Assembly (NCBI GenBank): GCA_964016885.1
Contig: OZ024743.1
Location: 282,720,001-282,784,000 of the forward strand
Reading direction: 5' to 3'
DNA: 64,000 bases
Origin: Eledone cirrhosa
Taxonomy: Eukaryota
Positions 6,150 through 45,060 of this stretch are shown one piece after another; the first letter of the stretch is position 1, and the number at the start of each line of letters is the position of its first letter. Below the pieces are notes generated by a model, which worked only from the letters and a program-made list of their open reading frames with translations, was not told the origin of the DNA and made no database searches. The position numbers and the translations under genes are program-made.

Positions 6150-6493
6150 AAATTTCGTTTCTGAATTTATTTAGCAAGATTCTTTATCTGAAAACGTGTG
6201 TTGAAACCAATATTGTTATACTTTGGGAGGGTCATGTTGCCAATAAAAAACACACGCACCAGTTGCTTTCACTCCAATATATTATAAATTTCCGGTTGGT
6301 TGGCTCGTTCCACAACCGGACGGTTGTTCATATATTGTCAAAGTTCTTTCGTCACACATTGTGTGACCTCTTCAGGGACTGGCGATTCTTTTCTTTGTTT
6401 TATGCCTCTCCTTTGTTCTGTCCTACGCCATCTTGTTTTTCTGGTGCGTGTGTTTCTTATTGGCAACATGACCCTCCCAAAGTATAACAATAT
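6150..6493 (-). mobile_element. Short Penelope-like non-autonomous element (inverted 5' copy plus tail) with a decayed hammerhead-like motif
   Basis: 53-bp inverted arms at 6210-6262 and 6441-6493 differ by one mismatch. ACAATATATATA..AAATT flanks both sides. The minus strand at 6347-6375 reads CTGAAGA G GTCACAC AAT GTGTGAC GAAA. Confidence 0.55.
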
Positions 6494-6593
6494 ATATAAA
6501 TTCTCTTACTGGTAATAAGGTAGTAATAAATTACTGACCTTTCCTATTTATAGTTGTTTATAGTATATACATAACTATAAATAGTATTATTAT

Positions 6594-6615
<22 letters not shown>

Positions 6616-6624
<9 letters not shown>

Positions 6625-7273
6625 GAGGGGGGTTTTTTTAATGAAAAAAACGAGATGTCCTACACGAGTGAAAGTATAAGGAAAAAAGATGAAATCGAAA
6701 ATGCAATTGGAGTTTTTTTAAGAATAATTATTTGGTTCCTTTACCGGTTTCGCAGTTCTTATGCTTTTCAAAAGTAGAATTGAGATGGAGAGCTTGTGGT
6801 TTTTTTCGCATCTGGTTGGTGTTCTTGTTTTATGTAGAAAAAAGTGGCTCGAAATGCTAGGTTTTTTTAGAAAAGTAGTTTGGTTGGTTTATGACTGTCA
6901 TGTGAATAAGTATAATAATTCCGCGCTAGTTCGTCGCGTTACAAAGTCCTTATTATATTTGCCGGGGGGGGGGGGGGGGGGGGGGCTCAGTTTGTTTTTC
7001 ATATATGAGTGAAATTTGGTTGGTTGGTTGGTGCAGCCACATAAATAAGTATATCAACTTTCGTGCCAGTTCGTATTTGAGGGTTCTTTTCACTTAAAAA
7101 AGTGACTCAAAAAACTTTTTTTATAATCAAATTACATTTATAAAAAAAACTTTTTGAACCACTTTTCTAAGTGAAAAGAACCCTCAAACATGAACTGGCA
7201 TGAAAGTTCATGTGCTTATTCACGTGACTGCACCAACCAACCAACCAAATTTCACTCATATATGAAAAAACAA
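6616..7273 (-). mobile_element. Penelope-like element remnant with a terminal hairpin and a decayed minimal hammerhead
   Basis: Inverted arms at about 6992-7126 and 7137-7273. The minus strand at 6739-6774 reads CTT TTGAAAA GCA TAAGAAC TGC GAAA CCGG TA AAG. The element abuts (TA)n at 6595-6616. Confidence 0.55.
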
Positions 7274-8018
7274 TCAAGGTGGACCTGAAAGTTAAACAAC
7301 AAAAAAGCAAAACATGAAAAGAAAACCTCTTAGGTGCAAACAATACTTGATAAATATTGTTCTCTGGGACAGAGAACAAAACAAAAAAAAAAAAATGAAA
7401 TGCTCTGGGGATAAATATCACAAATATTGACCTTGTAAACTTTTTGAATCTAAAAGGAAAATCATGATGTAGAGAGTGTTAATAATGGAATTGATGTAGA
7501 ACTTAAAACTATTGTAAGTTTGACAATAGATTCCTATTACTAACCAGACAGTGGGGCACTAGACTACGTGACAATATATAAATTCGGCCATCTTAGAAAC
7601 AGCTGATGTATCCACATCACACATATTTAGTTAACACACTCTAGATCAAGATATTTCAGGAGTTCATAATTTAAGCCTAATGATCATCCTCCACCACCAC
7701 CACCACCACCACCACACACAGCTCCCACACACAATATTTGATATCACTAAAAGTCTATGATAGAAAGACAGTTGCTTTGTTGATGATGAAACATCTAAAT
7801 AATAAATAACATCATCTCTAAACTTGAACAATCAATATTGTAATTAATTTAGATTTTCATCTAATACTCAGATGATTTGTTTCAAGAAGTGTATTTCTCC
7901 AACAAAAAGAATCTAATAGGTGATGATTCAACACTGTTGCTCTACCTGCTGGAAATAGCAACCAAATTTCCCTAAAAACAGGATAAAAAATACATATTGG
8001 ATAATGCAGTCTTAAATA

Positions 8019-8827
8019 CTGATATTAAAGTATTGTTCTCAAAATAAATAATATCAAAATCTCATAGATTCAATGTTATGTGAGGTAAAGCCTTTACCAT
8101 GAAAATATCATAATACTAGCCAAATTACCCACGCCTTGCTGCGTTTCACACATTTTTTTTTGTAAGAAAATGATGATTGATTTTAAATCAGTGATATAAT
8201 TTATAGAGAAAAACTCTGCAATTCAATATTACTCAATGTAAAATGTAATGCATGAAAAATTGGAAAACATTTTTTGTAATATATCAAATCAAAATTACAT
8301 TATTAAATCTTATTCTTATTTTGTTTCTTGTAAATAAAATAAAGGGAAAATGTTAAAAAGGTAGAGGCATTAACTAATAATTTTTGTTGTCATAATTCTA
8401 GTGATGTTTTGCCATAGATAAAATGTCTAAATTAGACAAATTTTATTATAAAAGAGAGGTGCTTTTTTTTGTTGATTTAATAGGAAAACCCCGTGATAAT
8501 AGAGTTATGGGCTTCCAAAATTTTCACTATAGGGTGTCTTAATATTATTGAAATTTGCTGAAATATTGTGAATAGGCATCATATCTTGTCATTGACCTTT
8601 GGTTTAAATTTCATATAAATTGAAGGGACAAAAATTTTCAACACGAGAACCCTTTGATTAAAATGAAATATACTTATCCAAGTACCCTGGGCAATGTAGT
8701 TTCAGAATATATATGGTTATGGGGTCTATCTCCAAAACCATAGGAGTTTGTGAACAAACAAACAAACAGACAGGAACTACAACTTTATATATATAAATAT
8801 AGAGTAATGTAAATGCTAAAGGGATAA
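8019..8827. mobile_element. piggyBac-like MITE fragment interrupted by a Helitron-like element
   Basis: 8019-8114 and 8797-8827 join to give the body and right TIR (AAATGCTAAAGGG) of the MITE family seen intact at 20982-21195. Confidence 0.75.
8115..8796 (-). mobile_element. Non-autonomous Helitron-like element
   Basis: The left end ACTAG is followed by a GC-rich palindrome remnant (CCCACGCCTTGCTGCG), i.e. a 3' CTAG end on the minus strand. The right end is (AAAC)n AGACAG...CTTTATATATATA. There is no TSD and it splits a MITE cleanly. Confidence 0.65.
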
Positions 8828-8929
8828 TCCATACTTGCCAAAGTATAGAGATAAGAGAATCACTAGATTGGTGTACAAAAAAGATGAGTTTGTAAGAGCT
8901 GCAAAGTCTTTTATGTTTTATAATAGATA

Positions 8930-9334
8930 AGGCGCTACGTTATCTAGATGATGTGGAAAATATTGCATTAGAGTTGCCCAAATGATGTTGAGATCATCTT
9001 TAAAATACACCTAAGGATTGTGCCACATGCTATCTGCCCCCAACAAAAATTAAGCTTGCATCTCATAACATTACAGCACAATAATTTCACCTCAACTGGT
9101 TCTATTGTTTTTAAAAATACACCAAAACACACAAACAGAACCCATAAAATTCAAAAAGTCTTTGGACAAATTCCTCCAAGAAATCTCGGATAAACCTCCT
9201 ACACCCGGATATGTATCTAAATGATAACTCTACTTGAGTGGGCTATGATGTCCAAATCCTGATTTGAATGACTTCGCCATGTGGTACTATTAAGTTAGAC
9301 ATAGGTTTTGGCCAGTATTGGCCCAGGCTATCAA

Positions 9335-9336
<2 letters not shown>
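8930..9336 (+). mobile_element. CR1/L2-type LINE 3' fragment
   Basis: Around 9140-9215 it translates as PIKFKKSLDKFLQEISDKPPTPGY, the FKxxLDxFL C-terminal signature of CR1-group ORF2. Upstream reads MMWKILH..CPNDV. Confidence 0.65.
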
Positions 9337-9383
<47 letters not shown>

Positions 9384-9547
9384 CAATATGTAAAGATAAC
9401 ACACCAGAGAGAGAGATAGTGCGCCATCAGTCAAACAGGGAAAAACCACCAGTGTATGGAATCTATAGCCCATGGAAGGCAAAGTAGACACACAATAATT
9501 AAAAGTATAAATCAAAGTGCAAATACGTACCTTGATAACTATCTAAC

Positions 9548-9637
9548 ACACACGTACAAATCCAAAAAGATCTGTTTCACCAACTAATTTGTTGACAGAA
9601 ATGATTAGCCTATGGTTCATCAGCATGTGTAAGGCTA
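9548..9637 (-). ncRNA. Type I hammerhead ribozyme, mirror copy, sense to the Lasp transcript
   Basis: Exact reverse complement of 10158-10247. Confidence 0.85.
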
Positions 9638-10157
9638 TACATTTCAGACAACACTAAAAGAATCTAAAGCGACCATCCAGCCACACGTGGTAGAGAGAAA
9701 TTCACAGCGTGCCTAGGGCAGCAACCAGTGGCCTCTGAGGGACGAGCTGCTAGAAAGAGCAGCCCAAAGCACTCGGAGAAATGTGCTCAACGAAACAGAG
9801 AGAGAGAAGATACTGTTATAAGGAGCGAAATATCACGATAAATTAACGGAGCCATAGACTCTTGCCATTCCCTGTATTATAAAGGGCTCGGGATTCCTTC
9901 TCCTTTGAGCACATTAATGACAGGGAATAGAGAGAGTCTATGACTCCGTTAATTTATCGTGATATTTCGCTCCTTATAACAGTATCTTCTCTCTCTCTGT
10001 TTGGTTGAGCACACTTCTCTGAGTGGTTTGGGCTGCCCTTTATAGCAGCTCGTCCCTCAGAGGCCACTGGTTGCTGCCCTAGGCACGCTGTGAATTTCTC
10101 TCTACCACGTGCGGCTGGACGGTCGCTTTAGATTCTTTTAGTGTTGTCTGAAATGTA

Positions 10158-10247
10158 TAGCCTTACACATGCTGATGAACCATAGGCTAATCATTTCTGT
10201 CAACAAATTAGTTGGTGAAACAGATCTTTTTGGATTTGTACGTGTGT
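10158..10247 (+). ncRNA. Type I hammerhead ribozyme with full stem III and GUA cleavage triplet
   Basis: Stem I ACACATG(10165-71)/CGTGTGT(10241-47). Core CTGATGA 10172-78. Stem II ACCA(10179-82)/TGGT(10213-16). GAAA 10217-20. Stem III CAGATCT/GGATTTG. Predicted cleavage after A10240. Possible pseudoknot TAGCCT(10158-63)/AGGCTA(10184-89). Confidence 0.88.
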
Positions 10248-10506
10248 GTTAGATAGTTATCAAGGTACGTATTTGCACTTTGATTTATACTTTTAATTAT
10301 TGTGCGTCTACTTTGCCTTCCATGGGCTATAGATTCCATACACTGGTGGTTTTTCCCTGTTTGACTGATGGCGCACTATCTCTCTCTCTCTGGTGTGTTA
10401 TTTTCTCTACATTTTGTATTATAAAGGGCTCGGGATTCCTTCTCCTTTGAATACATTAATGACAGGGAATAGCGGGAGTCTATGGCTCCGTTAATTTATC
10501 GTGGTA

Positions 10507-10538
<32 letters not shown>

Positions 10539-10641
10539 TATTATTATTATTATAGTAATAATAATAAATTTGAAGACTAAAATCCAAAGAGGGCTCGATA
10601 AGGATAAATATATATCAAATATATAAGAACTGTATCTGTTA

Positions 10642-10685
<44 letters not shown>

Positions 10686-10689
<4 letters not shown>

Positions 10690-11065
10690 CCTAAGAAAAT
10701 ATATATATGCCTATGTATATAATTACATGCATACATTTATTTTTCTAAATTAATTGAGTTCTTTACACGAGGAATTGATATTAGTTTTGAAATAACTAAT
10801 TAACCCACGTGTGTTTTATATTTTACTCTTAATTCGGCCGGAGATTTACATTCCCATTTGCCCTTTAAAGCATAATTTTCCGTATTTACTACGGTTACGA
10901 GATGCGGTTTCTTATTCAGGTACAACCTCTGATTTTAGCCTAAGAAAATATCTATATGCGTGTGTAATTTATACACGCATATATTTATTTTTTTAACTTC
11001 AATTGAGTTCTTAACACGGATTGATAATGTTTTCGAATAAACTGATTAACCCGCGTGTATATTAT
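10686..11065. repeat. Diverged direct duplication (about 130 bp, period 249) at the start of an unclassified repeat
   Basis: TTAGCCTAAGAAAATAT...ATTGAGTTCTT.ACACG...ATTAACCC.CGTGT starts at both 10686 and 10935. It follows (TA)n. Confidence 0.65.
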
Positions 11066-11575
11066 TATTTTTTTTCCTCCTTTCGTGGATCGTAGTTGTC
11101 TCCCCTTCCCGCTTAGTGACGCTATAACACTTCCTCAGTCAAAAACTGCTGGAATTTCAAATTTGCCGGTCATTCGATGCGGGAAGGAGCAACTTAACGG
11201 ACATGATTTTTAACCGTGGTAAGAAATGTTTTTCTTATATCAAGGTTTAATGGGCTTCCACTGATGATTTATAAGCGCCCACCTAAATATATTCTTACAT
11301 GAATGTATATTAGGCTTCTACATAAACTGGAAATATTCTCCGAATTTGTAGAAAACTTATAATGAAACAATTGTTTGGAAAGAGAGATATATTTTAACTT
11401 TAATTATATCTCATAAAATAATACAACTGGCTTTTCCACATAATACATATTGTTAGCACCCCAAACACTTAAATTGGGTTTATATTAAAATATAACCTAA
11501 TGTTTGTTGAGTGTGATGGTTACCAGTCAGAGATTAGCTTTAAACTATCTCTGTTATTGTATTAATTATATATAT

Positions 11576-12021
11576 CATCATCATCAACGTTTAACGTCCG
11601 TGTTCCACGCTTGCATGGGTTTGGACGGGGGTAGTCCCACTTGAGGCAAGAGTGATTGTCTTGCTCGCATAGGACTGTCTGGCAGGTTTTCTACAGTTGG
11701 ATGCCCTTCCTAACACCAACCACATTTACAGTGTGGGTCTGGGAGGTTTTTACCGTGTTGCCTACACGGCCACATTACAGCGTGGACTGTGTGTTTTTTT
11801 GTCGTGACACCTACACGATCTCATTTGTTTCGGCCTCGATGGCGCAGCACCAACATAACTTTACATAGAACGGGGTGGTGTGGATGGGGTGGGGGTGGGG
11901 TGGTGGGACGGGGGTGGGTTTTGTTAGAGATGCCTACTGGCTGGAGTAGGTTTTACTATATATTTAGGTAAGGCGGGTCTTCTCTGTTACTGAGTACCGC
12001 CAAAGGTCTCGGTCCAGTGAC
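11576..12021 (-). mobile_element. RTE LINE 3' end, 5'-truncated
   Basis: It matches the 3' UTR and ORF end of 34217-34620 and the reverse complement of 17795-18246. (GAT)n tail; sits in (TA)n. Confidence 0.88.
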
Positions 12022-12053
<32 letters not shown>

Positions 12054-12539
12054 TCACACACACATATATATATACACACACATACATACACACATATACA
12101 TATACACATACATACATACACATATGCATACAGGATTTAAGGTCAAGGGTATACGAGAGAGAGTGGAGCAAGGCCACTATGTAATGGAGCTGTAGTTGCT
12201 CAGGTAATAATAGATATTGTTTAATGTCTATTCTTATACAGAAACTGCATAATTTGGCAGCTGCAGCTTAAAAAAAAATCTGTCTCCCCTATACTCAAAT
12301 TTAGAGCACGTTAGGGGTTGGTAAATATTCTGAAGGATGTCTTGGTTCTAGTTCATAATTAGCTTTGTTTTTACGAATGTTTGGAATCCAATGGTCTTAT
12401 CCACTAGGTGTTTTCTTTATTGGTGGTTTCATTTTCTGAGTATTATTTACGTATAGGGCATCTGAGGATTGCTTTGCATTTGCTGTGGGTGTGTATGCAT
12501 TCAAATTTGTGTTTTGATGGCGCTACATGCTTGTGCATT

Positions 12540-12575
<36 letters not shown>

Positions 12576-12584
<9 letters not shown>

Positions 12585-12945
12585 TGTAAGCTATCGCCGT
12601 ATTTTGACTAAAGAAATTAAAGAAATAATTTAGCCTGATAGTGGGGTTAAGAACCCTCGGAGAAATGGAAAAAGATGAGTATTGACATACATGGGAGTCG
12701 AACTCACATCTTTGGTTATCCGGACCACTGTGCTACCATTTACACCAACACATCATCCGGATAACCAAAGATGTGGGTTCGACTCCCATGTACGTCAATA
12801 CTCATCTTTTTCCATTTCTCCGAGGGTTCTTAACCCCACTATCAGGCTAAATAATTTCTTTAATTTCTTTAGTCAAAATACGGCAATAGCTAACATTTCT
12901 AATAATTTCAAATCCACTCGCTGTTTCGAAAATATTCTTACTTGA
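12576..12945. mobile_element. Head-to-head hairpin element with a tRNA-like head and a ~40-nt one-sided tail
   Basis: 149-bp arms at 12576-12724 and 12756-12904 with few mismatches, a 31-nt loop, and a tail at 12905-12945. (TA)n lies on both sides. Confidence 0.8.
12682..12755 (-). pseudogene. tRNA-like sequence (SINE-type Pol III head), not a canonical tRNA
   Basis: The minus strand reads TGATGTG TTG GTGT AAATGGTA GCAC AG TGGT CCGGATA ACCA AAGAT GTGAG TTCGACT CCCAT G TATGTCA A. It has an A box, D arm, anticodon-like arm, TTCGA T-loop/B box and an acceptor-like stem rich in G-U pairs. Confidence 0.7.
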
Positions 12946-13248
12946 TATATATATATATTAATATATTAATATATATTAATATATATTAATATATATATAT
13001 TAATATATATATATAAATATATATAAATATATATATATAAATATATATAAATATATATATATAAATATATATAAATATATATATATATAAATATATATTA
13101 ATATATATATATATAAATATATATTAATATATATATATATAAATATATATTAATATATATATATAAATATATATTAATATATATATATATTAATATATAT
13201 ATATATATATTAATATATATATATTAATATATATATATATATATATTA

Positions 13249-13320
<72 letters not shown>

Positions 13321-13493
13321 TATATATTAATATATATATATAAATATATATAAATATATATATATAAATATATATAAATATATATATATAAATATATATA
13401 AATATATATAAATATATATATATAAATATATATAAATATATATATATAAATATATATAAATATATATAAATATATATAAATATATATAAATAT

Positions 13494-13530
<37 letters not shown>

Positions 13531-13549
13531 AATATATATATATTAATAT

Positions 13550-13586
<37 letters not shown>

Positions 13587-13605
13587 AATATATATATATT
13601 AATAT

Positions 13606-13642
<37 letters not shown>

Positions 13643-13661
13643 AATATATATATATTAATAT

Positions 13662-13716
<55 letters not shown>

Positions 13717-13735
13717 AATATATATATATTAATAT

Positions 13736-13772
<37 letters not shown>

Positions 13773-13791
13773 AATATATATATATTAATAT

Positions 13792-13824
<33 letters not shown>

Positions 13825-13843
13825 AATATATATATATTAATAT

Positions 13844-13900
<57 letters not shown>

Positions 13901-13919
13901 AATATATATATATTAATAT

Positions 13920-13950
<31 letters not shown>

Positions 13951-13951
13951 A

Positions 13952-13984
<33 letters not shown>

Positions 13985-14063
13985 AATATATATTAATATA
14001 TATATAAATATATATAAATATATATATATAAATATATATTAATATATATATAAATATATATTA

Positions 14064-14094
<31 letters not shown>

Positions 14095-14102
14095 AATATA
14101 TA

Positions 14103-14138
<36 letters not shown>

Positions 14139-14142
14139 TATA

Positions 14143-14178
<36 letters not shown>

Positions 14179-14185
14179 TATATTA

Positions 14186-14218
<33 letters not shown>

Positions 14219-14226
14219 AATATATA

Positions 14227-14262
<36 letters not shown>

Positions 14263-14266
14263 TATA

Positions 14267-14310
<44 letters not shown>

Positions 14311-14314
14311 TATA

Positions 14315-14373
<59 letters not shown>

Positions 14374-14823
14374 TAATATATATATATTAATATATATATA
14401 TATATATATATTAATATATATATATTAATATATATATATATATATATATTAATATATATATATTAATATATATATTAATATATATATATATATTAATATA
14501 TATATATTTATATATTAATATATATATATTAATATATATATTAATATATATATATATATATATATATTAATATATATATATTAATATATATATATATATA
14601 TATTAATATATATATATTAATATATATTAATATATATATATTAATATATATTAATATATATATATTAATATATATATATTAATATATATTAATATATATA
14701 TATATATATTAATATATATTAATATATATATATATATATTAATATATATTAATATATATATATATATATTAATATATATATATTAATATATATATATTAA
14801 TATATATATATTAATATATATTA

Positions 14824-14866
<43 letters not shown>

Positions 14867-14874
14867 TATATATT

Positions 14875-14969
<95 letters not shown>
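12946..14969. repeat. ~2.0-kb pure A/T compound microsatellite, (TA)n punctuated by AAA and TTAA
   Basis: No G or C seen across about 2 kb. ATAAAT and ATTAAT phase shifts recur. Confidence 0.97.
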
Positions 14970-14971
<2 letters not shown>

Positions 14972-15204
14972 GGTAGTTATTGAGGGGGAGTAGACTGGTT
15001 GGAGCAATAATGGTCTTATTTACATATACACATAATATATTTATAGATTATCGTCATCAGCATTTGATGTCCAGTTTTCCATGCTGGTATGAGTGGGGTG
15101 GGTTGTCACTTGCTCGTTCCTTCATTCATTCATTCATTCACACACACAAAATGTTGTATAGAAATTGAGAAGAAGCAGATAGAGAACTGAGAACATTGGA
15201 GAAT

Positions 15205-15380
15205 AATTGTTTCTACTTTTGGCACAAGGCCAACAATTACTCAGTGTATCACTGGTACTTTATTTTATCGACCCCGTAAGAATGAAAGGCAAAGTTAACC
15301 TCGGCGGGATTTGAACTCAGAATGGCAAGGGCCGTACCTCTATGCATCAAAGCATGGCGTCTGACCCTCTACCGATACTG
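15205..15380 (-). mobile_element. tRNA-derived SINE (family A)
   Basis: Closely matches 40934-41120, including B box GAGTTCAAATCC and the GCCTTTCAT.CTTACGGGGTCGATAAAAT domain. Older copies lie near 2115-2330, 4540-4740, 19185-19320, 31320-31480, 43620-43760 and 54470-54600. Confidence 0.85.
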
Positions 15381-15539
15381 CCTCTCTACTCATTGACTTT
15401 AGCAAATCATAGATTTTTTTTTTTAACATTGGAAATTGTTTTAAGCAAAACAGCTTCTAATCTTGACAACATCTAATTTTCAGACATTGACCTACTTAAC
15501 CTTTAGAATGAATCTAAAACACACACACAGACACTTGTT

Positions 15540-15571
<32 letters not shown>

Positions 15572-16614: not shown

Positions 16615-16682
<68 letters not shown>

Positions 16683-17501: not shown

Positions 17502-18246
17502 GCAGACTGGAGAGGAACAAAGCTTGCATGCTCCGTTGGATGTGTAATAGTAATATACGTGAACGGCAAAGCATAAACGAACTAAGAGAGAAATTAGGAA
17601 TAAGAGGGATCAGATGTTTACTCGAGAGAAGACTACATTGGTACGGTCACGTGATGCGCATGAAAGACGACAGCTGTATAAAAAAGTGCAGGGCGATAAA
17701 AATAGACGGTAGCCACGGAGTAGGCAGACCCAGAAAAACCTGGGACGACTTGATAAATTCCGACCTCACACACTTACACCTCTCCAAGACAATGTCACTG
17801 GACCGAGATCTTTGGCGCTACACAGTAATACAGAAGACCCGCCTTGCCTAAGTACAAAGCGAAACCTACAGTCAGTAGGCACCTCTAACAAAAATACACC
17901 CCTGTCCCACTACCCCCACCCTATCCACACCACCCCCTTCAATGTGAAGTTATGTACCACAACATCCAGTCTGAAACAAATGAGGTCGTGTAGGTGTCAC
18001 AACAAAAAAAACACACAGTCCACGCTGTAATATGACCGTGTAGGTAACACGGTAAAAACCTCCCAGTCCACACTGTAAACGTGGTTGGTGTTAGGAAGGG
18101 CATCCAACCATAGAAAACCCGCCAGACAGTCCTATACGAGCAGGACAACCAATCTTGCTTCAAGTGGGAAACTCCCGTCCAAACCCATGCAAGCGTGGAA
18201 GATGGACGTTAAACGATTATGATCATGATGATGATGATGATGATAA
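17502..18246 (+). mobile_element. RTE LINE 3' fragment (ORF C-terminus plus 3' UTR)
   Basis: ORF 17528-17851 (MLRWMCNSNIRERQSINELREKLGIRGIRC...WYGHVMRM...GRPRKTW) is nearly identical to 34587-34961. (GAT)n tail. Confidence 0.93.
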
Positions 18247-20550
18247 TCAGTGGGCAGCTGCCAGATGAATAAGCAAATCTGGACCAACAGCGGTAAACTA
18301 CTAGGGAAGATGGAGCAATGGGTGACACCTGCAGCTCCTAAGAAAACTCTCACAACCCAGTGATGTAGCTATGATGAGGCGAGTAAAGGCCACCTCTAAA
18401 AAAGCCTAGTCTTTGTGGGTTTGAGAAAGTACCAGATCGGTGCCTGGCACGAACAAGACCACCAAAACTGCAACATGGTAAGAAGAACAAAAAAGAACCA
18501 TACCGCATCACTCTTCACGTGGGTTAACAAGGGATGCGTTCAGAGGCTTTAGGTAGAGGGGCTATTCAAAAAATATACTGCAGTCTCCATTTTAAAAAAC
18601 TGGACACCAAAACCTTATATATTATTTAATGCAATAAAAATTTTGATTTTCTGCACTCTGAGTTCAAGTCCTATCAAAGTTAACTTTATCAACTCCAAAA
18701 GGATGAGAGTAAAGAACCAGGCTATGGTGGTGGCTTGGTGGAATTGTTTGAGCATTAGACTGGATGCCTTGAGATATCTGTTCTGGTTCTGTGTTCAAAT
18801 CCTATCTCCTGTCACTGGGAAAATGCTGATATTTATTGTTTTATGAACCAACAGAGGATCCATCATAACACTTTTATAAATATGAGCACCATTAACATTG
18901 GATCGAAGAGGGCATGTTTGGAAAGCTTTGGGTTTCAAGTAATGAATTATGAACATGTCTTATTATTACTTCTACTGTGTTGCAGCCTTCGCTGTAATCT
19001 GCTTGACTGGCAATATGTATGTGTGTATCCATAACTCCTGATAGAGTGGTAGGGGCACTGTCATTACATACAGCATGCCTTGGACATTTAAAAACTGGCA
19101 GAGTCCATCACCTTTCCATGTCTGTACACAATCTTCCAGAGAAAAAGAGTGAAAAAGAGATATAGAAGAAGAATCGATCCTGCTATACTCTTTTTATCAA
19201 CCTTGAAAGGATAAAAGGCAAAGTTAAACTTCGCATGATTTGAACTTAGAGAATGCAGAGAACCGAAATGAATATAAAAAGGCATTCTATCTGACATTCT
19301 AATGACTTTGCCAATTCAACACCTGATTGGCAATAATTATCACTCATACTTCTCTGTAGGTGTGGTTAGTCCAAGGAAGGGCATCCAACTGTACAAATAA
19401 CAGTTCCAATAAAATGCAAATACCCACATTTTCAACAACAAAGACTGCTCCCAGAAAATAAATGACTTAGAATGAAAACTATGTGAATAAATAAATGAAA
19501 TGCCACAGTAGCAAAATTTCAAAATAATTTCAAGTGATAGAAATATTCAACAAACCTAAAGATATATTTCATAATCTCAAATACATAATAGGAAATGTTT
19601 TAAAAGGTTTATAATTTAAATGATATCCTCAAACCAAAATAAATATTCTTTCTAGCTTTTATTAACAAATACCTTAAAACAAAAAAACAATGAATATTCT
19701 TTCTACCTTTTATTAATAGATAAATTAACTGATTAAATTATCACTTAACAATTGAGAAATAGGTTAACCCCCATTTCATGGATAAATACAAATAAAAAAT
19801 ATCCCAAGGTGAGGGCAAAATGAAAACAGTTAAGTATCTTAATCTGAGTAGCGCAACAAAAGCAAGCTAGCTCATAATCAATATGTCTCAATAACAGATC
19901 AAAGTGGTGATAATGTTTGCAAATAGATTGATTAGATAAGCTTACATCCAAATCAAAGAAATATGTTATGGTTAAAACGCAGTTATGTTCTAGTCATATT
20001 CAAAACTGAAATATTAGATACCAATCATGATAATTATAACAAATGATTAGAGAGTAATCAGAAAATATAAGTTTATACTTATATTTCATAGATATTTAAA
20101 CAAAACATTGTATATAAAATACCAAAACAACCAAGATAAGAGGACTATTCTGAATAATCGCATAATATATTGCGCAATATTACTAACAATATTTTTTACT
20201 ATCAACAACTACTGAATAATTATCAGCTTTACATCTGTTTTTCCGTGCAAGCATGGATTCCATAAGAGTTTTTGAGGTAGAATTCTACTGCAGGATCTAG
20301 TTTACAATGTACTCAACCCTTATGTGATCATTCAAAATACTAATGATTGTCAAATTTCCATCAAATTAAACCCCACTATCTTAAAAAGTGGAAAGACATA
20401 ATATAATTTTATATATTCCCCCAAAACATGGGATGAAGATTGCTTAAATATCAAGAATGTGTAACTAAAACATGGCTAGAAGATTGCTTAAATATCAAGA
20501 ATGTGTAACTAAATATAATATACATAATTTGTCAATAGTAATCTTCCTGG

Positions 20551-20728
20551 TTAACTCTTTTTATCATTTACATTACTTTATATTACTTTATATTTACTAT
20601 TGTATTTTCGTGGTAAAGGCTTTATCTCGCATAATATCGAATCTATGAGATTTTGATATTATTGATTTTGAGAACAATATCTTGAGAATTCTGGCCGGAT
20701 ACAGCCAGATTAAATGCTAAAGGGTTAA
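20551..20728. mobile_element. piggyBac-like MITE, internally deleted, opposite orientation to its neighbour
   Basis: TTAA at both ends and a TAAATGCTAAAGGG TIR. Confidence 0.8.
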
Positions 20729-20981
20729 ATTGAAAGTGTAAGGGTAAATTTTTAAGCTACCTGTAAAGGATTAAATAGGTCATAAAATAACTATTTAAAA
20801 TATGTAATTGCTTGATTAACATAAAATAGTATCAAATAATTTGCAACCAATTTTAAAATGTCAACCATTTATTGGTATTCAGATAAATTGGATCTTGTAT
20901 TTATCCTTGCTTGTGGACAAACAGTATATATGTTTCTTTCATATCTATCATTTGTAAGTAATAAATAAAAAATATATACTC

Positions 20982-21195
20982 TTAACCCTTTAGCATTGAA
21001 ACCGGCTATATCTGGCCAGAATTCTCTCTCCTCTTTCTGTTCAAACCAGCTGTAATTGGCCACACATACTGATGTTACGGTATTGTTCTCAAAATAAATA
21101 ATATCAAGGTCTCATAGATTTGATATTATGTGAGATAAAGCCTTTACTGTGAAAATATAATAGTATATAGAGTAATGTAAATGCTAAAGAGTTAA
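20982..21195. mobile_element. piggyBac-like MITE (~210 bp)
   Basis: TTAA-CCCTTTAGCATT ... AATGCTAAAGAG-TTAA. A TTAA TSD and CCC termini are piggyBac hallmarks. Confidence 0.88.
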
Positions 21196-32764: not shown

Positions 32765-32980
32765 ATAATTGTTTCTACATTTGACACAAGGCAATTTAAA
32801 AGGAAGCGGAAAGTTGATTAAATTGACCCTAGTGCATTATTGGTACTTTATTTTATGAACCCCGTAAGGATGAAAGGCAAAGCTATCCTCAGTGGGATTT
32901 GAATTCAGAACAAAGGGCATAACTATATGCTTCCAAGCAGGTTGCCCAATGCTCTACCAATTCTGCCAATCCACATCCCT
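32765..32980 (-). mobile_element. tRNA-derived SINE (family A)
   Basis: Homologous to 40934-41120. Confidence 0.8.
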
Positions 32981-34220: not shown

Positions 34221-37200
34221 TCATCTTCGTTTAACGTCCATTTTCCACGCTAGCATGGGTTAGACGGGAGTTGTCCCACTTGAGGCAAGGCTGGTTGGGT
34301 GACCATGTCTCGCTCATATAGGACTATCTGGCAGGCTGCCCTTCCTATCACCAACCACATTTACAGTGTGGAACTGGGAACTTTTTACCGTGTTACCTAC
34401 ACGGCCACATTACAGCGTGGACTGTGTGTGTTTGTTGTCGGGACACCTACACGATCTCATTTTCTCGTGCTGTTGGTGGGAGTGGGACGATAGGGTAAGG
34501 GTAGTGGATTGGGGTGTATATTTAGTTAAGAGGTGCCTACTGACTGTAGGTTTCGCTTTGTACATAGGCAAGGCGGGTCTTCTGTATTACTGCGTAGCGC
34601 CAAAGATCTCGGTCCAGAGACATTGTCTTAGAGAATGTAAGTGTGTGAGGTCGGAATTTATCAGATCATCCCAGGTTTTTCTGGGTCTACCTACTCCGTA
34701 ACTACCATCAATTTTGATCGGCCTGCACTTTTTTATGCAGCTGTCGTCTTTCATGCGCATCACGTGACCATACCAACGTAGGCTTCTCTCAAGTAAACAG
34801 CATCTGATCCCTCTTATTCCTAATTTCTCACTTAGTTCATTTATGCTTTGCCGTTCACGTATATTACTATTACACATCCAACGAAGCATGCATGCTTTGT
34901 TCCTTTCCAGTCTACGCAGGTCCTCTGCACGTAATGCCCATGTCTCACTGCCATGTAGCATTGTTGTTCATATACAGGCATCATACAATCTACCTTTCAT
35001 TTTTAGAGAGAAACCTTTTGTGGCCAACAGCGGTGTAAGCTCTCTGAACTTTTTCCATCCCGTTCTGACTCTGGCTACTGTACTTTCAGAACACCCTCCA
35101 CCACTGCTGATTTCATCACCCAGGTAACGGAAAGTGTCTACTATTTCTATAGAACCATCTGGGCAATAGAAGGAGCTAGTATCCTTTGGACACTTGCTAC
35201 TTATTGCACCTGAGCATTGGCCACATATAAATTCTACGTTCTTAGATAGTTTACCTGTGATCCCACTAGATCTTTTATGTACCCATACTTTGCATTTGGG
35301 ACATAAAATGGAATTTCTGCCTACTCCTTTCCTACACACTGAGCATGGCCATTTCCCTGAGGGCACCTGCGCCCTATTTTCGTTTCTACAAACTAGGACT
35401 TTAGTCTTAGACAAGTTAACTTTAAGGCCTTTTGATTCTAGACCATGCTTCCATGTTTTGAATTTCTTCTCTAGTTCAGCCATTGATTCAGCTATGAGCG
35501 TTAGATCATCTGCGTATAGGAGTTCCCATGGGCAGCCGGTCTTGAACTCCTGTGTTATAGCCTGAAGGGCAATAATAAATAGTAGGGGGCTAAGGACAGA
35601 GCCTTGATGAACGCCAACTTTTATACTAAATTCTTCACAATATTCATTGTTAATTCTAACCTTACTGACTGTTTCATTATACATAGCTTGTATAGCTCTC
35701 ACAAGCCATTCATCTGCACCTAGTTTTCTAAGAGCCCACCAGATAATGGAGCAGGGGACTGTCAAAAGCTTTCTCCAGGTCTACAAAAGCTAAGTAGAGG
35801 GGTTTACTTTTAGCTAGGTACTTCTCTTGTAGTTGTCGTACAAGGAAAAGAGCGTCTGTGGTACTTTTACTTGACACAAACCCAAACTGCATTTCATCTA
35901 GATCAATTCGCTCTCTGATTAGTTGTGCTATAACTCTTTCTGTGACCTTCATGACCTGGTCAACTAACTTAATGCCCCTATAGTTTCCCTTATCTAGAGC
36001 ATCCCCTTTACCCTTGTAGCAGTTGATGATGATGCTGCTACGCCAGTCTTTCGGTATGACCCCATTCTGTATTACTTGGTTAACTATACGGGTGACCATA
36101 GTGTCCCACCATACCAGATGCCTTCAACATCTCAGCAACTATCTCCGAAGGCCCAGCTGCCTTGCCTGTCTTCATATCCTTGATTGCCTTACTTATTATA
36201 CTACCTTTAACTTGCACCGCTGGTCCTTCTATTTGATCGATTTGGGGCAGACTATCTTTTTCCCATTTATTCTCCTCATTTAATAGTCTCTCGTAGTGAC
36301 ACTTCCAGGCTATCTTCTTATCAGTATCAGTGAGCGCAAGTACACCATTATCATTACGAACACACTTCTCCCCGACAATATCACGGTTTTCCTTGACACA
36401 TTGTCTAGCAATCCTGAACACCTCACGTTTTTGGTCCTCATGTTGTAGAACATGCTTGAACTTTTTGCAAGGTACACTTGTCTCCTAGCTTCTCTCCTGG
36501 CCACTTGATAGTGCTCTCTACTTTTCCCATCCTGCCATACTTTCCAAGCCTGCTTTTAGGCCTTGATTGTCTCTTCTACCTTACTGTTCCACCACCAAGT
36601 TACTCTCCTCCTGCCAATAGGTCTGCTCCAGCCACAGATTTCATCCGTTGCTTTCAGCAGGTTCACTTTCAAGAATTGCCATTGTTCCTCTATATTGCAC
36701 GTCTCTAATTGCTCTTCCTTATTGTCAAAGGCATCAAGTAATAAGCTTTTAAATTTGTCACTGGCTATGGGGTCCTTCAACTTCCATATTCTTCTCAAGG
36801 TAGGCTTCCTCTGTCGTCGAGTACGTCTATTCCTGACTATGAGGTCACTAACTACTAGGCTATGTTGGGAGGTGCATTCTTCACGGGGGAGGGATTTAGT
36901 GTTTACAACAGTCATTTTGTCCCGTCTTCTAGTAAGGATATAATCTATCTGGCTGGCGTGTTCCCCTGAGCTATAGGTGATCAAGTGGTTTTCATGTTTT
37001 TTGAAGTTTGTGTTACAGATAGTTAGGCTATTTGCGTCACAGAATTCCAGGATTCTGAAGCCCTCCTCATTTCTATTTCCAACCCCATAGCCTCCATGGA
37101 TTCCATCATAGCCATCACTATGTTGTCCAACGTGACGTTTAGATCGCCAGCAATAATTAAGTAGTCACTGTCGGTTATTTGGGAGGTAGTGTGCATTAGC

Positions 37201-37771
37201 ATCTCATAGAACCTGTCCTTTATAACATCAGGTAGACCAGATTGGGGTGCATAAGCAGATATTATTGTCACAGTAGTTCTATTTAGAACTAGTCTTAATT
37301 CAATTATTCTGTCATTCACTCTATTTACGTCAATTACCTTATCTACCCATTTTTCAGCTAACATAATTCCTACACCACCCTGCCCGTTGTCATTTCCCAC
37401 CCAGAAAAGTTTATAGCATCGTTTTTTACCCACGATGAATCTGGCAGACGCCCCTTTCCACCTAGTCTCTTGAATACAACAAACATCAACTTCTTTACGT
37501 TCAAGCATTTCTACAACCTCATTTGAGCGACCTTTCAATGTGCCTACATTCATGGTACCAACTCTGAAGTGAGGAAAGTGGGATGGATGGGTTGGAAGGG
37601 CAGGGAGGGGTGTGGGAGATGGGATTTTGTTGGTCATCTGTGTCTGAAATAAAGAGGGGTCCTTGTATTCTCGTCTTGCAGCGGGAGGTGAATTTATCTT
37701 TATCTGTGACATTGTCATTGAGTGCTTAGACTTTTCAAATTTCCACAGTCAACCCATCAAACAGGTCTAAA

Positions 37772-37774
<3 letters not shown>
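34217..37774 (-). mobile_element. Near full-length RTE-clade LINE, frameshifted: APE endonuclease, reverse transcriptase and a Cys-rich PHD-like finger
   Basis: Endonuclease motifs GTMNVGTL, DVCCIQETRW, ISAYAPQ, IAGDLN and SQIDYIL (37718-36556). RT motifs NYRGIKL, QFGF, FVDLEKAFD, GVHQGSVLSPLLF and LLYADD (36099-34968). C-terminal WYGHVMRM/GRPRKTW. (GAT)n tail. Several frameshifts; embedded in (TA)n. Confidence 0.95.
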
Positions 37775-37810
<36 letters not shown>

Positions 37811-38221
37811 CCAGGAATAAACAGAATCAGTGTTTCTTATCTCTCAGTTACTTAATACCACATGAAATTAGGTTAAGCTCTGTTCAGGTGAACTAACTTT
37901 TATCCAAGATCCATAGAATTTCAAAAACTTCTTAATCATACAACCATGCCTGAAACCCCCAAAAAATTATAACTATGAAAGAATACAAACTATGAAAGGG
38001 ATTGTAACCCCACTATGGGTACGCACATAGTTGATTATGGATAACAGAGTGATGAATAGTATTCAATGTGCTAAGAATAGATAATACCCTATGTGCATCT
38101 CTTTTTAGAATAGGTACACTGTATCCCCACATGGCATAAGGTGAGTAAAAGGGCATTCAGTTGTAAAACTGTCACAAAAAGTTCTATCCAACCCATGCCA
38201 GCACTCAAAAGCAAACATAAA

Positions 38222-39020: not shown

Positions 39021-39112
39021 TGAACATAAAGAATATGCCTATAATAATCTTGGAATATTGAAGTTATTCTACGACTGATTACATAAATCTATAAAATCAG
39101 TTCAACTAAAGT

Positions 39113-39311
39113 TTAACCCTTTAGCATTTAAACCAGCCGTATCCAGCCAGAATTCTCTTTCTGTTCAAACCAACCATAACTGGCCACTCAAACTGATGTT
39201 AAGGTATTGTTCTCAAAATAAATAATATCAAAATCTCAGATTTGTGAGATAAAGCCTTTACCACAAAAATACAATTGTAAATATAGAGTAATATAAATGC
39301 TAGAGGGTTAA
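39113..39311. mobile_element. piggyBac-like MITE
   Basis: TTAA-CCCTTTAGCATTTA ... TAAATGCTAGAGGG-TTAA. Confidence 0.88.
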
Positions 39312-40759: not shown

Positions 40760-40917
40760 TACCATATTTCCAGGCGCCGAAAATGCTTCGTCCTAATTTT
40801 AACAACCAAAAATTTGAAGAAAAAAAATTAAACAACCTTTAGCCTCCAGGACGCATGGTAGATTTTTGAGACTTATTTTAGGAAAAGAATAGTGTTTCGA
40901 CGCCGGGAAATACGGTA
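40760..40917. mobile_element. Short pogo/Tigger-like MITE
   Basis: TIRs TACCATATTTCCAGGCGCCGAAA and TTTCGACGCCGGGAAATACGGTA, bounded by TA. Confidence 0.75.
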
Positions 40918-40933
40918 GTTAGAAATAAATAAT

Positions 40934-41120
40934 TGTTTCTACTTTAGGCACAAGGCCAGCAATTACCCAGTGCATTACTGGTACTTTATTTTTATCGACC
41001 CCGTAAGGATGAAAGGCAAAGTCAACCTCGGCGGGATTTGAACTCAGATCGTAAAGGGACGTAACTATGCTGGAAAGCATGGCGTCCGACCCTCCACCGA
41101 TACTGCCAATACACCGCCCT
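40934..41120 (-). mobile_element. Young tRNA-derived SINE (family A) with 18-bp TSD
   Basis: TAGTTAGAAATAAATAAT occurs at 40916-40933 and 41121-41138. A box TGGCAGTATCGG and B box GAGTTCAAATCC are on the minus strand. Confidence 0.92.
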
Positions 41121-41670
41121 TAGTTAGAAATAAATAATAAAAGTGAAAACATATTTCTTCTATTCATCATTGTTTTTGTTTGCCTTTCAATGCTGTAATG
41201 AGTTGGATGGGACTTTTGAGGTTAACCCTTTTAATTGTTTCTTACAACACAAACAGATACTTATTCTAAACCAGATACACACTCCAGGTTCTATAAAATA
41301 TCTAGAAGACAAATACTGAGGTTCATTCAATCAACTACACCTATTTCAGGAAATCTATGTCCTATGCACCAATGTAAGAAATATTAGGGAGATGAATGGT
41401 AGAAAATAACTTCAATGTAGGCAGTAGAATTAAAAGTGTATTAGTTTTCAATATCGAAATGAATTAGTTACACAAGGTTCTGTAAAAAGTTTTTTAACAA
41501 GTAAAATTTCATCTGAATATGAAAAAAAACTTAATAATAATAAAACGTTTAACACATGTAACAAAACAAATACAAAAGATTTATTTTCTAGTTTAATATA
41601 CAACACAAGGGTGTATTGAAAATGCTTTATAATTTAAGATGATAGAATAGAAAACATGGCAATAGTTAAA

Positions 41671-42104
41671 TTAATCGCTTGATACTAAACTGGCTGAAAC
41701 TGCCCCTGGTTCGACAATACAAAGCTATTTGTTTAAAAAAAAAAAAACTCCTGTCGTAATTTTATGTAAGAAACTTTATTAACCCTTTAGCATTTACATT
41801 ACTCTATATTTACTATTGTATTTTCGCGGTAAAGGCTTTATCTCAATATCGAATCTATGAGATTTTGATATTTATTTTTAGAAAATACTTTAACATCAGT
41901 ATGAGTGGCTGGTTACAGCCGGTTTAAACAGAAAGTGGCGAGACAATTCTGGCTGGATACAGCCGGTTTAAATGTTAAGGGGTTAAGTTATGCTCCAAAT
42001 ACCAACTTAATAAGAAACTTACTCTGAATTCTTGATTACTTTCAAAATTAATTGAAAATCATAGGCAGTGTCTTTCATTAAAAATATGATAATGAAAGGG
42101 TTAA
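41671..42104. mobile_element. Older piggyBac-like MITE (second family) containing a nested younger MITE at 41779-41986
   Basis: Outer ends TTAA...GAAAGGG-TTAA, with relatives near 33361-33588, 27040-27266 and 3210-3425. The inner element reads TTAA-CCCTTTAGCATTTA...TAAATGTTAAGGGG-TTAA. Confidence 0.75.
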
Positions 42105-42651
42105 TCTATGGGAATGGTCATCAGATGAAGATGGCACAATTGAATAGAAAAGAACAAGACAGAAAAAGAGGTAAACTTAAATTATCCAAATAATGCCACC
42201 ACGTGTGAACCAATTAGACAATGATTTTTTTCTATATCATAAATATAAAATAAGTCAAATGCTTAATTTCAATATTCATAGTCTTAAGTAAATTAACAGA
42301 TGTCACCTCATATAATTTACTTTTCAAGTGTTCCTATGAAGTTAGTTTCCTTTCTAAAAATAATACTACAAATACAACCACAGCTTTTAACAACTCTGAA
42401 CAAGCATTCCACATTTTTAAACATGTGCATGATCATGTGTGTAAATAAAAAGTAATTTCTTTTTTTATTCATGTGTGTATAGGCAGAAAGGAAAACATGA
42501 ATATTTCTTGCAATTGGTAATTAAAATTCTAAATAAATATAGAACATAACAGTATGAAAGGTGGGGATGGGGAGGATGGCTAAAAGTATAAATGGTAGTG
42601 AAGAGAATGATGTTGGTAAATTTGTAAAAATTTTGAAACGATGATCAATAT

Positions 42652-43381
42652 ATAAAAACAAATAACGAAACGAAATTAAATTTTGTTTCGTTTGTAACTC
42701 ACTTTTGTATGACTGACGCTTAAACAATTAAGTTAAAAAATGTACATCCACATATGTATACTGAAATACTAGTATGCATATGAATACACACACGTATACA
42801 TATGTAGATGTACCAAGTTTTTCACTGGTCACTTTACTGTGAGTGTCCAGCTATTCTGTATGTAAACACACAGACAAACCGGTTTTTAGAGTCATACTGG
42901 TTTTTGAGGAAACACCTTTCCTCTATTCTCCAGAAAGCCAGACAAGGAATATTGAACTAGTTTCGTTGTTGTTACAACTCATCAGCAATATTTACCTATC
43001 TTCCGGCCTTTCTGGAGAATCGTAAAAGCACATATCGTTATATGCTTTTTCTATGAAAATTAGTAGTGGGCAGACTAATTTGCATAGAGCGTGAGTACGT
43101 ACCGGTTCAACGGAGACGATAAAAACAAATAACGAAACAAAATTAAATTTCGTTTCGTTTGTAACTCACTTTTGTATGACTGACGCTTAAACAATTAAGT
43201 TAAAAATGTACATCCACATATGTATACTGAAATACTAGTATGCATATGAATACACACACGTATACATATGTCGATGTACCAAGTTAAAACTTGGTACATC
43301 TACATATGTATACGTGTGTGTATTCATATGCATACTAGTATTTCAGTATACATATGTGGATGTACATTTTTAACTTAATTG
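42652..43381 (-). mobile_element. Non-coding hammerhead-bearing retroelement (Penelope-like/retrozyme-like): 467-nt unit, 167-nt direct repeat, inverted 5' copy and TSD
   Basis: Direct repeats at 42652-42819 and 43119-43285. Inverted copy at 43286-43381. TGATCAATATATAAA is duplicated at 42642-42656 and 43380-43394. Confidence 0.9.
42948..42992 (-). ncRNA. Minimal type I hammerhead ribozyme with palindromic stem III and GUU triplet
   Basis: The minus strand reads AATATTG CTGATGA GTTGT AACA ACAAC GAAA CTAG TT CAATATT. It has a perfect 7-bp stem I, a 5-bp stem II, an intact core and an ACTAGT palindrome. Predicted cleavage is between 42955 and 42954. Confidence 0.9.
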
Positions 43382-45060
43382 ATCAATATATAAATTTGTA
43401 TAAATTAAATATGATAATGATGACGACATCAATATATTGTGTTGTTAAGATTTCACCAGCCATATAGGAGGTTTGGAACCCATAAGAAATGTACTGAGTG
43501 TTTTAATGATAGAGCACTAGTCCTACTATGTCGACATTTTTCTGGTGACGAGGCAAAATTTGAACTGAGAAAACACAGCACCAGAGTAGATACTGCAAAT
43601 AATACTATCTTTTTCTCCAACAATTCCACCAATCCATCACTTTGGACCATGAAAGAATGAAAGGCAAAGTTGACCCTAGTAAGATTTGAACTCAAAACAC
43701 AGAGAGAACAAATACTGCAAGGCATTTAATCTGATGCTCTGGCTACTGCCAATTCATTACCTATTTCTATTTCCTTATATTGCATGATTGATACTTACCA
43801 GAATGACATGGCAATTAGTAATAATAATATAGTTTCAAAGTTTCAAATATTTTATTATAAATAACTATGAGGGCAGTCTTTATCTCTGGACTATAAAATA
43901 GGAGAGCTACTGCTGGAAACAATTGACCTAGATATATTCAAATATCATCACCACCTCTCACACAGAACTTATAAATAACAAGAATTGTGAGGCAAGAAAA
44001 ATATGAAATTGTAAGCTGCCCTCTCAAAGACTGGAATTTGGCAATATTCATAATCTGTAAAATAAGGTTTCTTGTTCAATTTTCAATGCCATATAACATG
44101 AAAATATAATTTGTAAAACTTAAGAAATCATTAGCTCACCAACTAGACCAACTATTTTGGCATGACACCATTTTTATTTTAGGTGCAACCTCCACCCCAC
44201 CCCCTAAAAAGGGAGTCATGCCTAAGTGAATTGAGCCAAGATATATATTTAAAAATCACTAAAACCTTTGGCACATTAGAATTTAGTCTATAAGCAATAA
44301 ATTTAATATTCTTTTTTTAACTTGACTCAATCAGAATAGCATCCATGACCTCAGGGCCTCTGAGAAGAATTATCCTTTGACCAGAGACCTGACCTAAATG
44401 TTTGCAGTAGAGTGCATTCAGCTAAGGGCACTGCAAGCACCAGGTGGTGGTGTTAAAGTGGACAACAGATTAATAGATATCAATTGCAGAAGGAAGTTAA
44501 AGTTTGATTATTTAACAAACTGAATTTTTACTTGGTCTAAATTATCTTAAAAAGCTATTGGTTATACAATAGGGACATTAGTATTGACAAGAGGAGCAAT
44601 AATTCTTCATATTTTTCATGATTTGTATGACTTATTTTACTACTGGAATATTCATTTTCCATTGAATTTTCGTTAGTAGCTAAAGTTTATGAGCAATAAA
44701 TTGGATATATTTCTACAATACACAAGATATTTTAACAATTTTTTATAAAATTCCTAATAATATTTGATTATAAAAATACAATAGGATTTTTATAATCAAA
44801 TGGCTATGGGGCCCACAACAGTAAAATAGAAATCAAAGGGGGTCCTTAGGTAAAAGAAGATTTAGATGATGAAATATATTTATCCATTATAAAATCATTA
44901 TAGTTGATTAATATGTTACAATAAACAAACAAAAGCCAACATCCACTAATATATTCTTAGAATGTTAGTACAGCGCTGCACCACCTTTTTGAAACAGTGG
45001 TCCACAAAATTCACAAAGAATATTTCATGGACCACCAAATATAAATTTTGTTTGCAATAT

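Follow-up and report, generated by a model that had tools for sequence, protein, structure and literature searches.

Four unrelated repeats in a 64-kb window of the Eledone cirrhosa genome probably share a two-armed, Penelope-type mode of insertion

What kind of enzyme writes short inverted repeats that have a shape in common but no sequence? The question is raised by a stretch of 64,000 nucleotides from Eledone cirrhosa (contig OZ024743.1, positions 282,720,001 to 282,784,000; hereafter the window), AT-rich animal DNA with microsatellites and remnants of long interspersed nuclear elements (LINEs), in which five such elements lie at 6150-6493 (A), 6617-7272 (B), 9381-10503 (C), 12576-12945 (D) and 42652-43381 (E). 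A first-pass annotation of the window had ascribed one Penelope-like architecture to all five and had proposed a mobilizing enzyme encoded elsewhere; its observation proved largely right, B aside, and its interpretation is partly supported. We consider, with a probability of roughly 0.7, that A, C, D and E are two-armed insertions of the type made by Penelope-like elements (PLEs), C and E being retrozyme-like, D a probable tRNA-bearing passenger, and A and B possibly plain PLE ends.

All five inverted structures were recovered by self-BLAST of the window, and the best match among A-E had an E value of 0.15, in agreement with the earlier statement that they lack common sequence. Arm identities were 52/53 (A), 120/137 (B), 479/504 (C), 144/150 (D) and 93/94 (E); because this range (87.6-98.9%) falls short of 100% and two elements are flanked by target duplications, the structures are not fold-back artefacts of reads. 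Only one other local inverted match (arms of at least 50 nt, at least 85% identity) was found, formed by two separate copies of a miniature inverted-repeat transposable element (MITE) at 20577-21203. As judged from the orientation of the hammerhead or tRNA, an inverted, 5'-truncated copy is joined at its 5' end to the main copy in A, C, D and E, and B holds an inverted pair. All five hammerhead motifs and the tRNA are directed toward the outer flank, and hence the arms meet at the RNA 5' ends. One arm exceeds the other by a 'tail' of 60 nt in A, 84 nt in C, 41 nt in D and 73 nt in E. Of the ten outer ends, seven are no more than 2 nt away from a stretch of at least four TA/AT units, a property of about 1% of window positions; three of the ten (A left, B left and D right) were defined by the TA run itself, and four of the other seven pass. 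The tabulation of junctions and flanks that had been suggested thus yields, for A, C, D and E, one-sided tails and TA targets and, in A and E, target duplications.

Other copies were examined by aligning reads or contigs of four public runs to 6000-12960 (A-D) and to 12700-12956 (D). Summed depth in run X1 was ~5-14 over unique flanks, 9e5 over A, 3e5 over the outer part of B, 282 over its inner part, 7e3-3e4 over C and 9e4-2e5 over D, sums that are not copy numbers and serve only as a sign of repetition. Repetition was visible also in runs with two other species labels. The longest methionine-started frames across the elements were 43-84 amino acids, and no arm had an open reading frame (ORF) extending from hammerhead to tail.

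A strict scan for type I hammerheads returned three matches scoring 16-18 (both C arms and the E main arm), with none above 9 in five shuffles. A relaxed scan returned six matches, of which A, B, C and E account for five; 60 shuffles averaged 0.2, a comparison flattered by rules that were chosen after the A and B motifs had been seen. Two of the relaxations, an unpaired base before a long helix II and a U3-A8 core, are described features of PLE hammerheads (PMC4209133; this and the other papers cited were available in part, and what is said of them is limited to that part), and an octopus Hydra element has the same extra base before helix II (PMC8557442, PMC3846280, PMC11167929). The third, a mismatched first helix I pair in A, is our own. 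On these predictions C and E carry perfect type I hammerheads and A and B weaker PLE-type variants; the four hammerhead carriers of the first-pass annotation are therefore two by the strict scan and two only under relaxed, post hoc rules. Rfam assigned the E motif to HH9 (E = 6e-6, under the gathering score).

Element C consists of a 499-nt left arm on the minus strand (9381-9879; perfect hammerhead at 9555-9623), which ends at the short site in (TA)n, and a right arm on the plus strand (9873-10503; perfect hammerhead at 10172-10240), which comprises a 542-nt unit plus an 89-nt repeat and ends at the long site in (TA)n. The partial tandem pairs 9873-9961 with 10415-10503 (84/89 identical). Its unit junction recurs outside this copy: position 10413 was covered by 34 contigs away from their ends, and 10328-10471 was spanned by one contig of another species label (organism B). 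Because other copies cross the head-to-tail junction, it belongs to the family, whose unit is a closed, ORF-less 542-nt sequence. The long arm stops, one full unit on, at the family's short-end site, and 7 nt (9873-9879) are common to both arms.

The main arm of E on the minus strand (42652-43285) likewise comprises a unit, of 467 nt, and a 167-nt repeat, with a 73-nt tail and a perfect minimal hammerhead at 42955-42985, and the partial tandem pairs 42652-42819 with 43119-43285 (164/168). A 94-nt fold-back arm on the plus strand (43288-43381) ends at the short site, and the junction between the arms is a near-perfect fold-back. The flanks of E carry a 15-nt direct repeat, 8 nt of which are not element sequence (target duplication of 8-15 nt), and random pairs matched the length of this repeat in 5 of 20,000 trials; C and D are inserted in (TA)n, where a target duplication is unreadable. 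As ORF-less tandem units with one hammerhead per unit, C and E resemble retrozyme-like passengers; a type I hammerhead in a short non-coding tandem unit is found in both and not in D. By the published rule for 'active' retrozymes neither window copy would qualify, with one hammerhead per arm. That C is non-autonomous is well supported; the same conclusion for E is supported by structure alone.

On the minus strand at 12682-12755, element D carries a tRNA-like cloverleaf in which both an A and a B box are present; it was identified by ARAGORN and by Rfam (RF00005, 34.5 bits; gathering 29), although minimum-energy folding does not yield it. Its left arm (12576-12755, minus strand) begins one base before the cloverleaf and ends at the short site in (TA)n, and its right arm (12756-12945, plus strand) starts in the anticodon arm, includes the 41-nt tail at 12905-12945 and ends in a 2-kb near-pure A/T array (12946-14980; TA runs with AA/TT interruptions) directly after the long end. 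The D arm of the cloverleaf presumably recalls tRNA-Gln; a GGA anticodon call is not credible with the short variable arm. The tRNA-like head described by the first-pass annotation was thus confirmed as a tRNA-like fold, but the family unit probably does not begin with it: ~16 letters upstream of it are common to 25 contigs (agreement 0.65), and at their far end these letters are similar to the final four bases of the tail. In one organism-D contig, two D pieces of the same sense lie 143 letters apart (133 predicted), with the letters between them unaligned. The odds that the D unit closes on itself at ~232 nt are about even. A run of five T (T5) lies ~10 nt past the cloverleaf in both arms (12807-12811), where no common variant is listed, and because it follows so closely, an RNA polymerase III (Pol III) transcript would probably stop ahead of the body and tail. 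D has the A/B-box tRNA region of tRNA-derived short interspersed nuclear elements (SINEs) but not their start at the tRNA 5' end or Pol III read-through, and it is probably not a classical SINE. It has no poly(A) and no self-BLAST match to the window LINEs.

The joints found between D copies (15 listed of 24) vary. Four of the 15 represent the normal unit read across the reference (coordinate sums 25481-25483) and were set aside. There were at least seven further inversion joints with differing inner positions: five inside the body (12762/12803, 12787/12791, 12788/12816, 12791/12872 and 12792/12796) and two head-to-head joints like that of the window (12750 to 12794 and 12753 to 12787). Four same-sense rearrangements included one of the tail followed by a truncated head. 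Orientation is certain only for the two skips and for 12787/12791. At the outer side, whole D contigs end at 12903-12906 in X1, X5 and X7, and since X5 and X7 contigs cross two other AATT sites, this position looks like a short-end branch rather than a restriction cut. Depth running into TA past 12945 amounted to 43% of that over the tail in raw reads (counting PCR copies) and to 27% in X1 contigs, and one organism-B contig likewise runs past 12945 into TA. Two fixed outer ends are therefore indirectly supported, for D only. The apparent 'molecule ends' of the restriction-site-associated DNA (RAD) run at 12856, 12862/12865 and 12904/12907 fall on AATT sites and are not element ends, and those of A and B are probably of the same nature.

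These features make D a likely non-autonomous, ribozyme-free passenger of perhaps ~230 nt. A more specific scheme, which we put forward tentatively and regard as doubtful, is that the cloverleaf stands in place of the hammerhead, with RNase P/Z-type cuts in a tandem transcript setting the ends of the unit RNA and a PLE enzyme copying it at each end of a broken TA repeat. Hints in its favor are a main arm that starts a single base ahead of the cloverleaf, a further four to five joints at 12750-12756 (a cluster that the reference design favored and that is a lead only), the ability of all four stems to pair, and upstream letters that may close onto the tail end. No stretch with the D or A motifs was found in two metagenome scans.

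For A, the outward orientation of the motif required a new parsing: the junction lies at 6441-6443 and not at 6262 as first annotated, and the hammerhead variant is on the minus strand at 6341-6375. The main arm (6150-6443, minus strand) is 5'-truncated and includes the 60-nt tail at 6150-6209, and the inverted arm (6441-6493, plus strand; 53 nt) ends at the short site. The variant has an extra base before a 7-bp helix II, a minimal helix III and the mismatched first helix I pair noted above. A TA-rich target is duplicated on both sides of the element with a 13-nt exact core. Beyond 6438 the family carries different letters in 32,221 RAD reads (PCR copies included), and because other copies run on in this way the window copy is truncated; A is a longer element's 3' end in truncated form, possibly an ordinary PLE end. 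A 97-codon open frame in A is attributable to chance (80/1000 shuffles), and a plus-strand hammerhead-like word in its tail was ruled out by a C3-A8 mismatch and the lack of helix II.

Element B has a high-copy outer part on the minus strand (6617-6963) that ends in (TA)n and bears a hammerhead variant at 6742-6771 (minus strand) with U3-A8 core covariation and a palindromic 4-nt helix III. Its inverted pair (6991-7272, 87.6% identical) has low depth at 85% likeness and is a diverged relative of 6820-6945 in the outer part (score 61; maximum of 37 in 300 shuffles), so that the two parts form one family of sequence. A run of 23 G separates them at 6964-6986. B fits the PLE-type pattern in part only and is probably an old member of the same kind.

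The insertion geometry of A, C, D and E has close parallels in published PLEs, whose insertions show an inverted 5'-truncated copy, a 30-40-bp tail at one end, 8-10-bp target duplications and junction palindromes, and for which action in trans has been reported (PMC3846280, PMC8557442, PMC11167929). In vitro, a purified anole PLE cuts AT-rich DNA, extends both strands and uses two internal start sites that bound the tail, with no need of hammerhead cleavage; Hydra and Naiad families that target (TA)n are present in octopod genomes, and in cephalopods the Naiads are long dead (same sources). We therefore favor a model in which these unrelated repeats, with their inner ends joined and one arm 41-84 nt longer, would have been written by enzymes with GIY-YIG and reverse transcriptase (RT) domains encoded elsewhere. 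Such an enzyme would cut both strands of TA-rich DNA with a stagger, as the duplications in A and E suggest; with the element RNA as template, each DNA end would prime complementary DNA (cDNA) from one or the other of two internal start sites, giving a long and a short end, and two RT start sites would explain the tail. The two cDNAs would stop at variable points and be joined head-to-head by microhomology or fold-back. C and E were probably copied from multimeric or circular RNA.

The window itself does not supply this enzyme, as the first-pass annotation had stated: no PLE RT or GIY-YIG domain was found among the 150 longest of 184 frames. Pfam matches occurred in 7 of the 150, with RT plus APE-endonuclease frames at 34971-37748 and 48042-50098 that we take to be RTE-like and Tx1/L1-like LINEs. 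The tails have neither length nor sequence in common, so that several PLE partners are no less likely than one shared enzyme; movement of small RNA families by an external Penelope-type enzyme is thus made likely by the geometry of A, C, D and E, but the single enzyme of a 'guild' is not.

Several observations weigh against this interpretation. None of six motifs had a match in the available part of the PLE supplement of Craig et al. (PMC8557442), and by eye the 3' ends of Naiad_Obim, Naiad_Ovul, Naiad_Omin and Hydra-1_Obim are unlike the elements. The tails of A, C and E (60-84 nt) are longer than the usual 30-40 nt, and the ends show 2-11 nt of target/element overlap, whereas in vitro the PLE starts without homology. 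Rfam gives no hammerhead match for A, B or C, and A and B fold no better than shuffles (B motif fold z +0.95). B departs from both the geometry and the TA-rich sites claimed for all five: its extension is 374 nt and not tail-sized, its right end has no TA, and no target duplication was found; a short-site match that would fit it to the pattern is not significant (126/1000).

One rival is that all five are 5'-truncated pseudo-long-terminal-repeat (pLTR) ends of ordinary autonomous PLEs, with the short tandems due to template jumps. Most PLE copies are truncated, and paired opposite-strand minimal hammerheads 100-700 bp apart have been described as truncated PLEs (PMC4209133). The first-pass annotation had itself raised terminal remnants, and that alternative is live for A, which goes on upstream in other copies; for A and B alone we give it an even chance. 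It accounts poorly for C, where the tandem junction is common to copies and species labels, unlike a one-off jump, and the lack of any arm with an open frame from hammerhead to tail also speaks against it, so that as an explanation of all five it is unlikely. Somewhat less improbable, although still doubtful, is that a PLE enzyme wrote the main arm and that one strand then folded back and primed itself to give the second arm, with no priming from a second target end; self-priming has been proposed for PLE palindromes (PMC3846280, PMC8557442, PMC11167929). The E junction and the recurrence of D copies at the 4-nt palindrome 12787/12791 fit this, but the inner ends of A, C and the window D are offset by at least 33 nt and are not fold-backs, and self-priming alone gives no reason for the second arm to end, at a set site, before the point reached by the first.

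Two explanations without a PLE enzyme appear very improbable, the second marginally more so. Twin priming by the enzyme of a Tx1/L1-like or RTE-like LINE could draw on the RT and APE-endonuclease frames of the window and would agree with target duplications of 8-16 nt. In classical twin priming, however, the parts of the RNA that become joined do not overlap, whereas the two arms of these elements repeat a single 3' region; the elements also lack a poly(A) tail, and self-BLAST found no similarity of the five to the LINE copies. Long inverted repeats and TA targets would likewise suit MITEs or fold-back DNA transposons, but fixed symmetric terminal inverted repeats with a fixed interior were not found: the arms are asymmetric, hammerheads and tandems are present, and the inner junction varies among D copies (family-level data being for D only). 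A true MITE of the same window has short symmetric ends in 4/4 full copies. On these sequences, the variable inner junctions and apparently shared outer ends of D copies argue against a MITE.

Compared with endonuclease-bearing PLEs (Arkhipova et al. 2013, PMC3846280; Craig et al. 2021, PMC8557442; Frangieh et al. 2024, PMC11167929), the Penelope-type insertions described here likewise show an inverted copy truncated at its 5' end, a tail on one side, partial tandems, short duplications of the target and a palindrome at the junction; they also agree in the (TA)n targets, known for Hydra, Naiad and Neptune, and in a hammerhead 100-300 nt ahead of the 3' end, but they have no ORF, units of ~230-540 nt and tails of up to 84 nt, and D has a tRNA-like fold and no hammerhead. 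C and E resemble metazoan non-LTR retrozymes, which are non-coding tandem units with one type I hammerhead, and their unit sizes lie inside the reported 51-972 bp (Cervera and de la Pena 2020, PMC7229834; Li, Clavereau and Pollet 2026, 10.64898/2026.07.22.740005). Those papers propose PLEs as mobilizer or source of retrozymes from co-occurrence and pLTR similarity, whereas here the insertion footprint itself points to PLE enzymes, with only 1.2-1.4 units per arm; the words 'inverted' and 'target site' do not occur in the available text of the 2020 paper (PMC7229834). Non-autonomous elements of Chlamys, among them MRC1 (PMC8557442), and short non-autonomous Penelope elements of Heliconius (PMC6685494) are similarly short PLE passengers with pLTR-like and head-to-tail structure, but elements of the MRC1 type have a known partner with which their 3' sequence is shared, no such partner having been found for the elements here, and no tRNA part is mentioned for them in the available text. 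D shares an A/B-box tRNA-like region in a short abundant repeat with tRNA-derived SINEs and with the small-RNA-bearing LTR elements Helenus, Ajax and Cassandra (PMC10886601), and differs from them in its PLE-type two-armed ends, the T5 right after the cloverleaf and a family reaching upstream of the tRNA; 'Penelope' does not occur in the available text of that paper (PMC10886601). The searched literature, which most subscription papers lie outside, contained no tRNA-bearing PLE passenger or Penelope-mobilized tRNA SINE; for non-autonomous Penelope elements it held one relevant study, as preprint and journal article, and apart from Craig et al. it offered nothing relevant on twin priming or on octopus hammerheads.

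PLE architecture is thus known, and that PLEs mobilize retrozymes has been hypothesized in print; the elements described here add this footprint on units without an ORF and one case that bears a tRNA and lacks a hammerhead, although the families may already be catalogued in Repbase or Dfam. PLEs have been proposed, not shown, to move animal retrozymes, and two-armed ORF-less hammerhead units constitute a structural test of that proposal as well as ready substrates for the existing in vitro PLE assay. If true, a tRNA-bearing, ribozyme-free D passenger would extend the SINE-like lifestyle to PLEs, and should the tRNA-cut scheme for D hold together with C and E, PLEs would in general serve as hosts to small-RNA parasites of unrelated origin, in the way that LINEs serve SINEs. 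Hairpins of this kind are also open to mis-annotation as MITEs or microRNA precursors; weak Rfam microRNA matches over B, D and E, under gathering scores, reflect the hairpins.

A further high-depth repeat at 10685-11420, which starts from a (TA)n run, is in part repeated in tandem over 249 bp (82% alike) and contains, near 11261, a degenerate hammerhead-like word, is possibly a sixth, one-armed member. Among the neighboring repeats, a broken RTE-like LINE occupies 34590-37748 on the minus strand and includes APE endonuclease and RT as well as a PHD-like finger in its interior, with truncated 3' pieces at 11574-12021, 17504-18229 and 22833-22934, and two broken Tx1/L1-like LINEs lie in opposite orientation at 48042-52281 (minus) and 57223-59211 (plus), 77% alike over 1.97 kb. 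The ~220-bp MITE, presumably piggyBac-like, has short symmetric ends starting TTAACCC and is present at 20982-21198, 39109-39311, 41771-41989 and 54648-54883, in a partial copy at 20577-20729 and in a split copy at 8016-8107 and 8794-8828 with a 686-bp nested insert that many reads skip. An abundant SINE that is unrelated to D, and that we take to be of the octopus OK/OR type, has eight copies, at 2192-2333, 4580-4722, 15202-15382, 19187-19293, 32804-32980, 40928-41120, 43645-43737 and 54474-54592, and a 93-bp tandem repeat spans 60000-60314 in ~3.4 copies.

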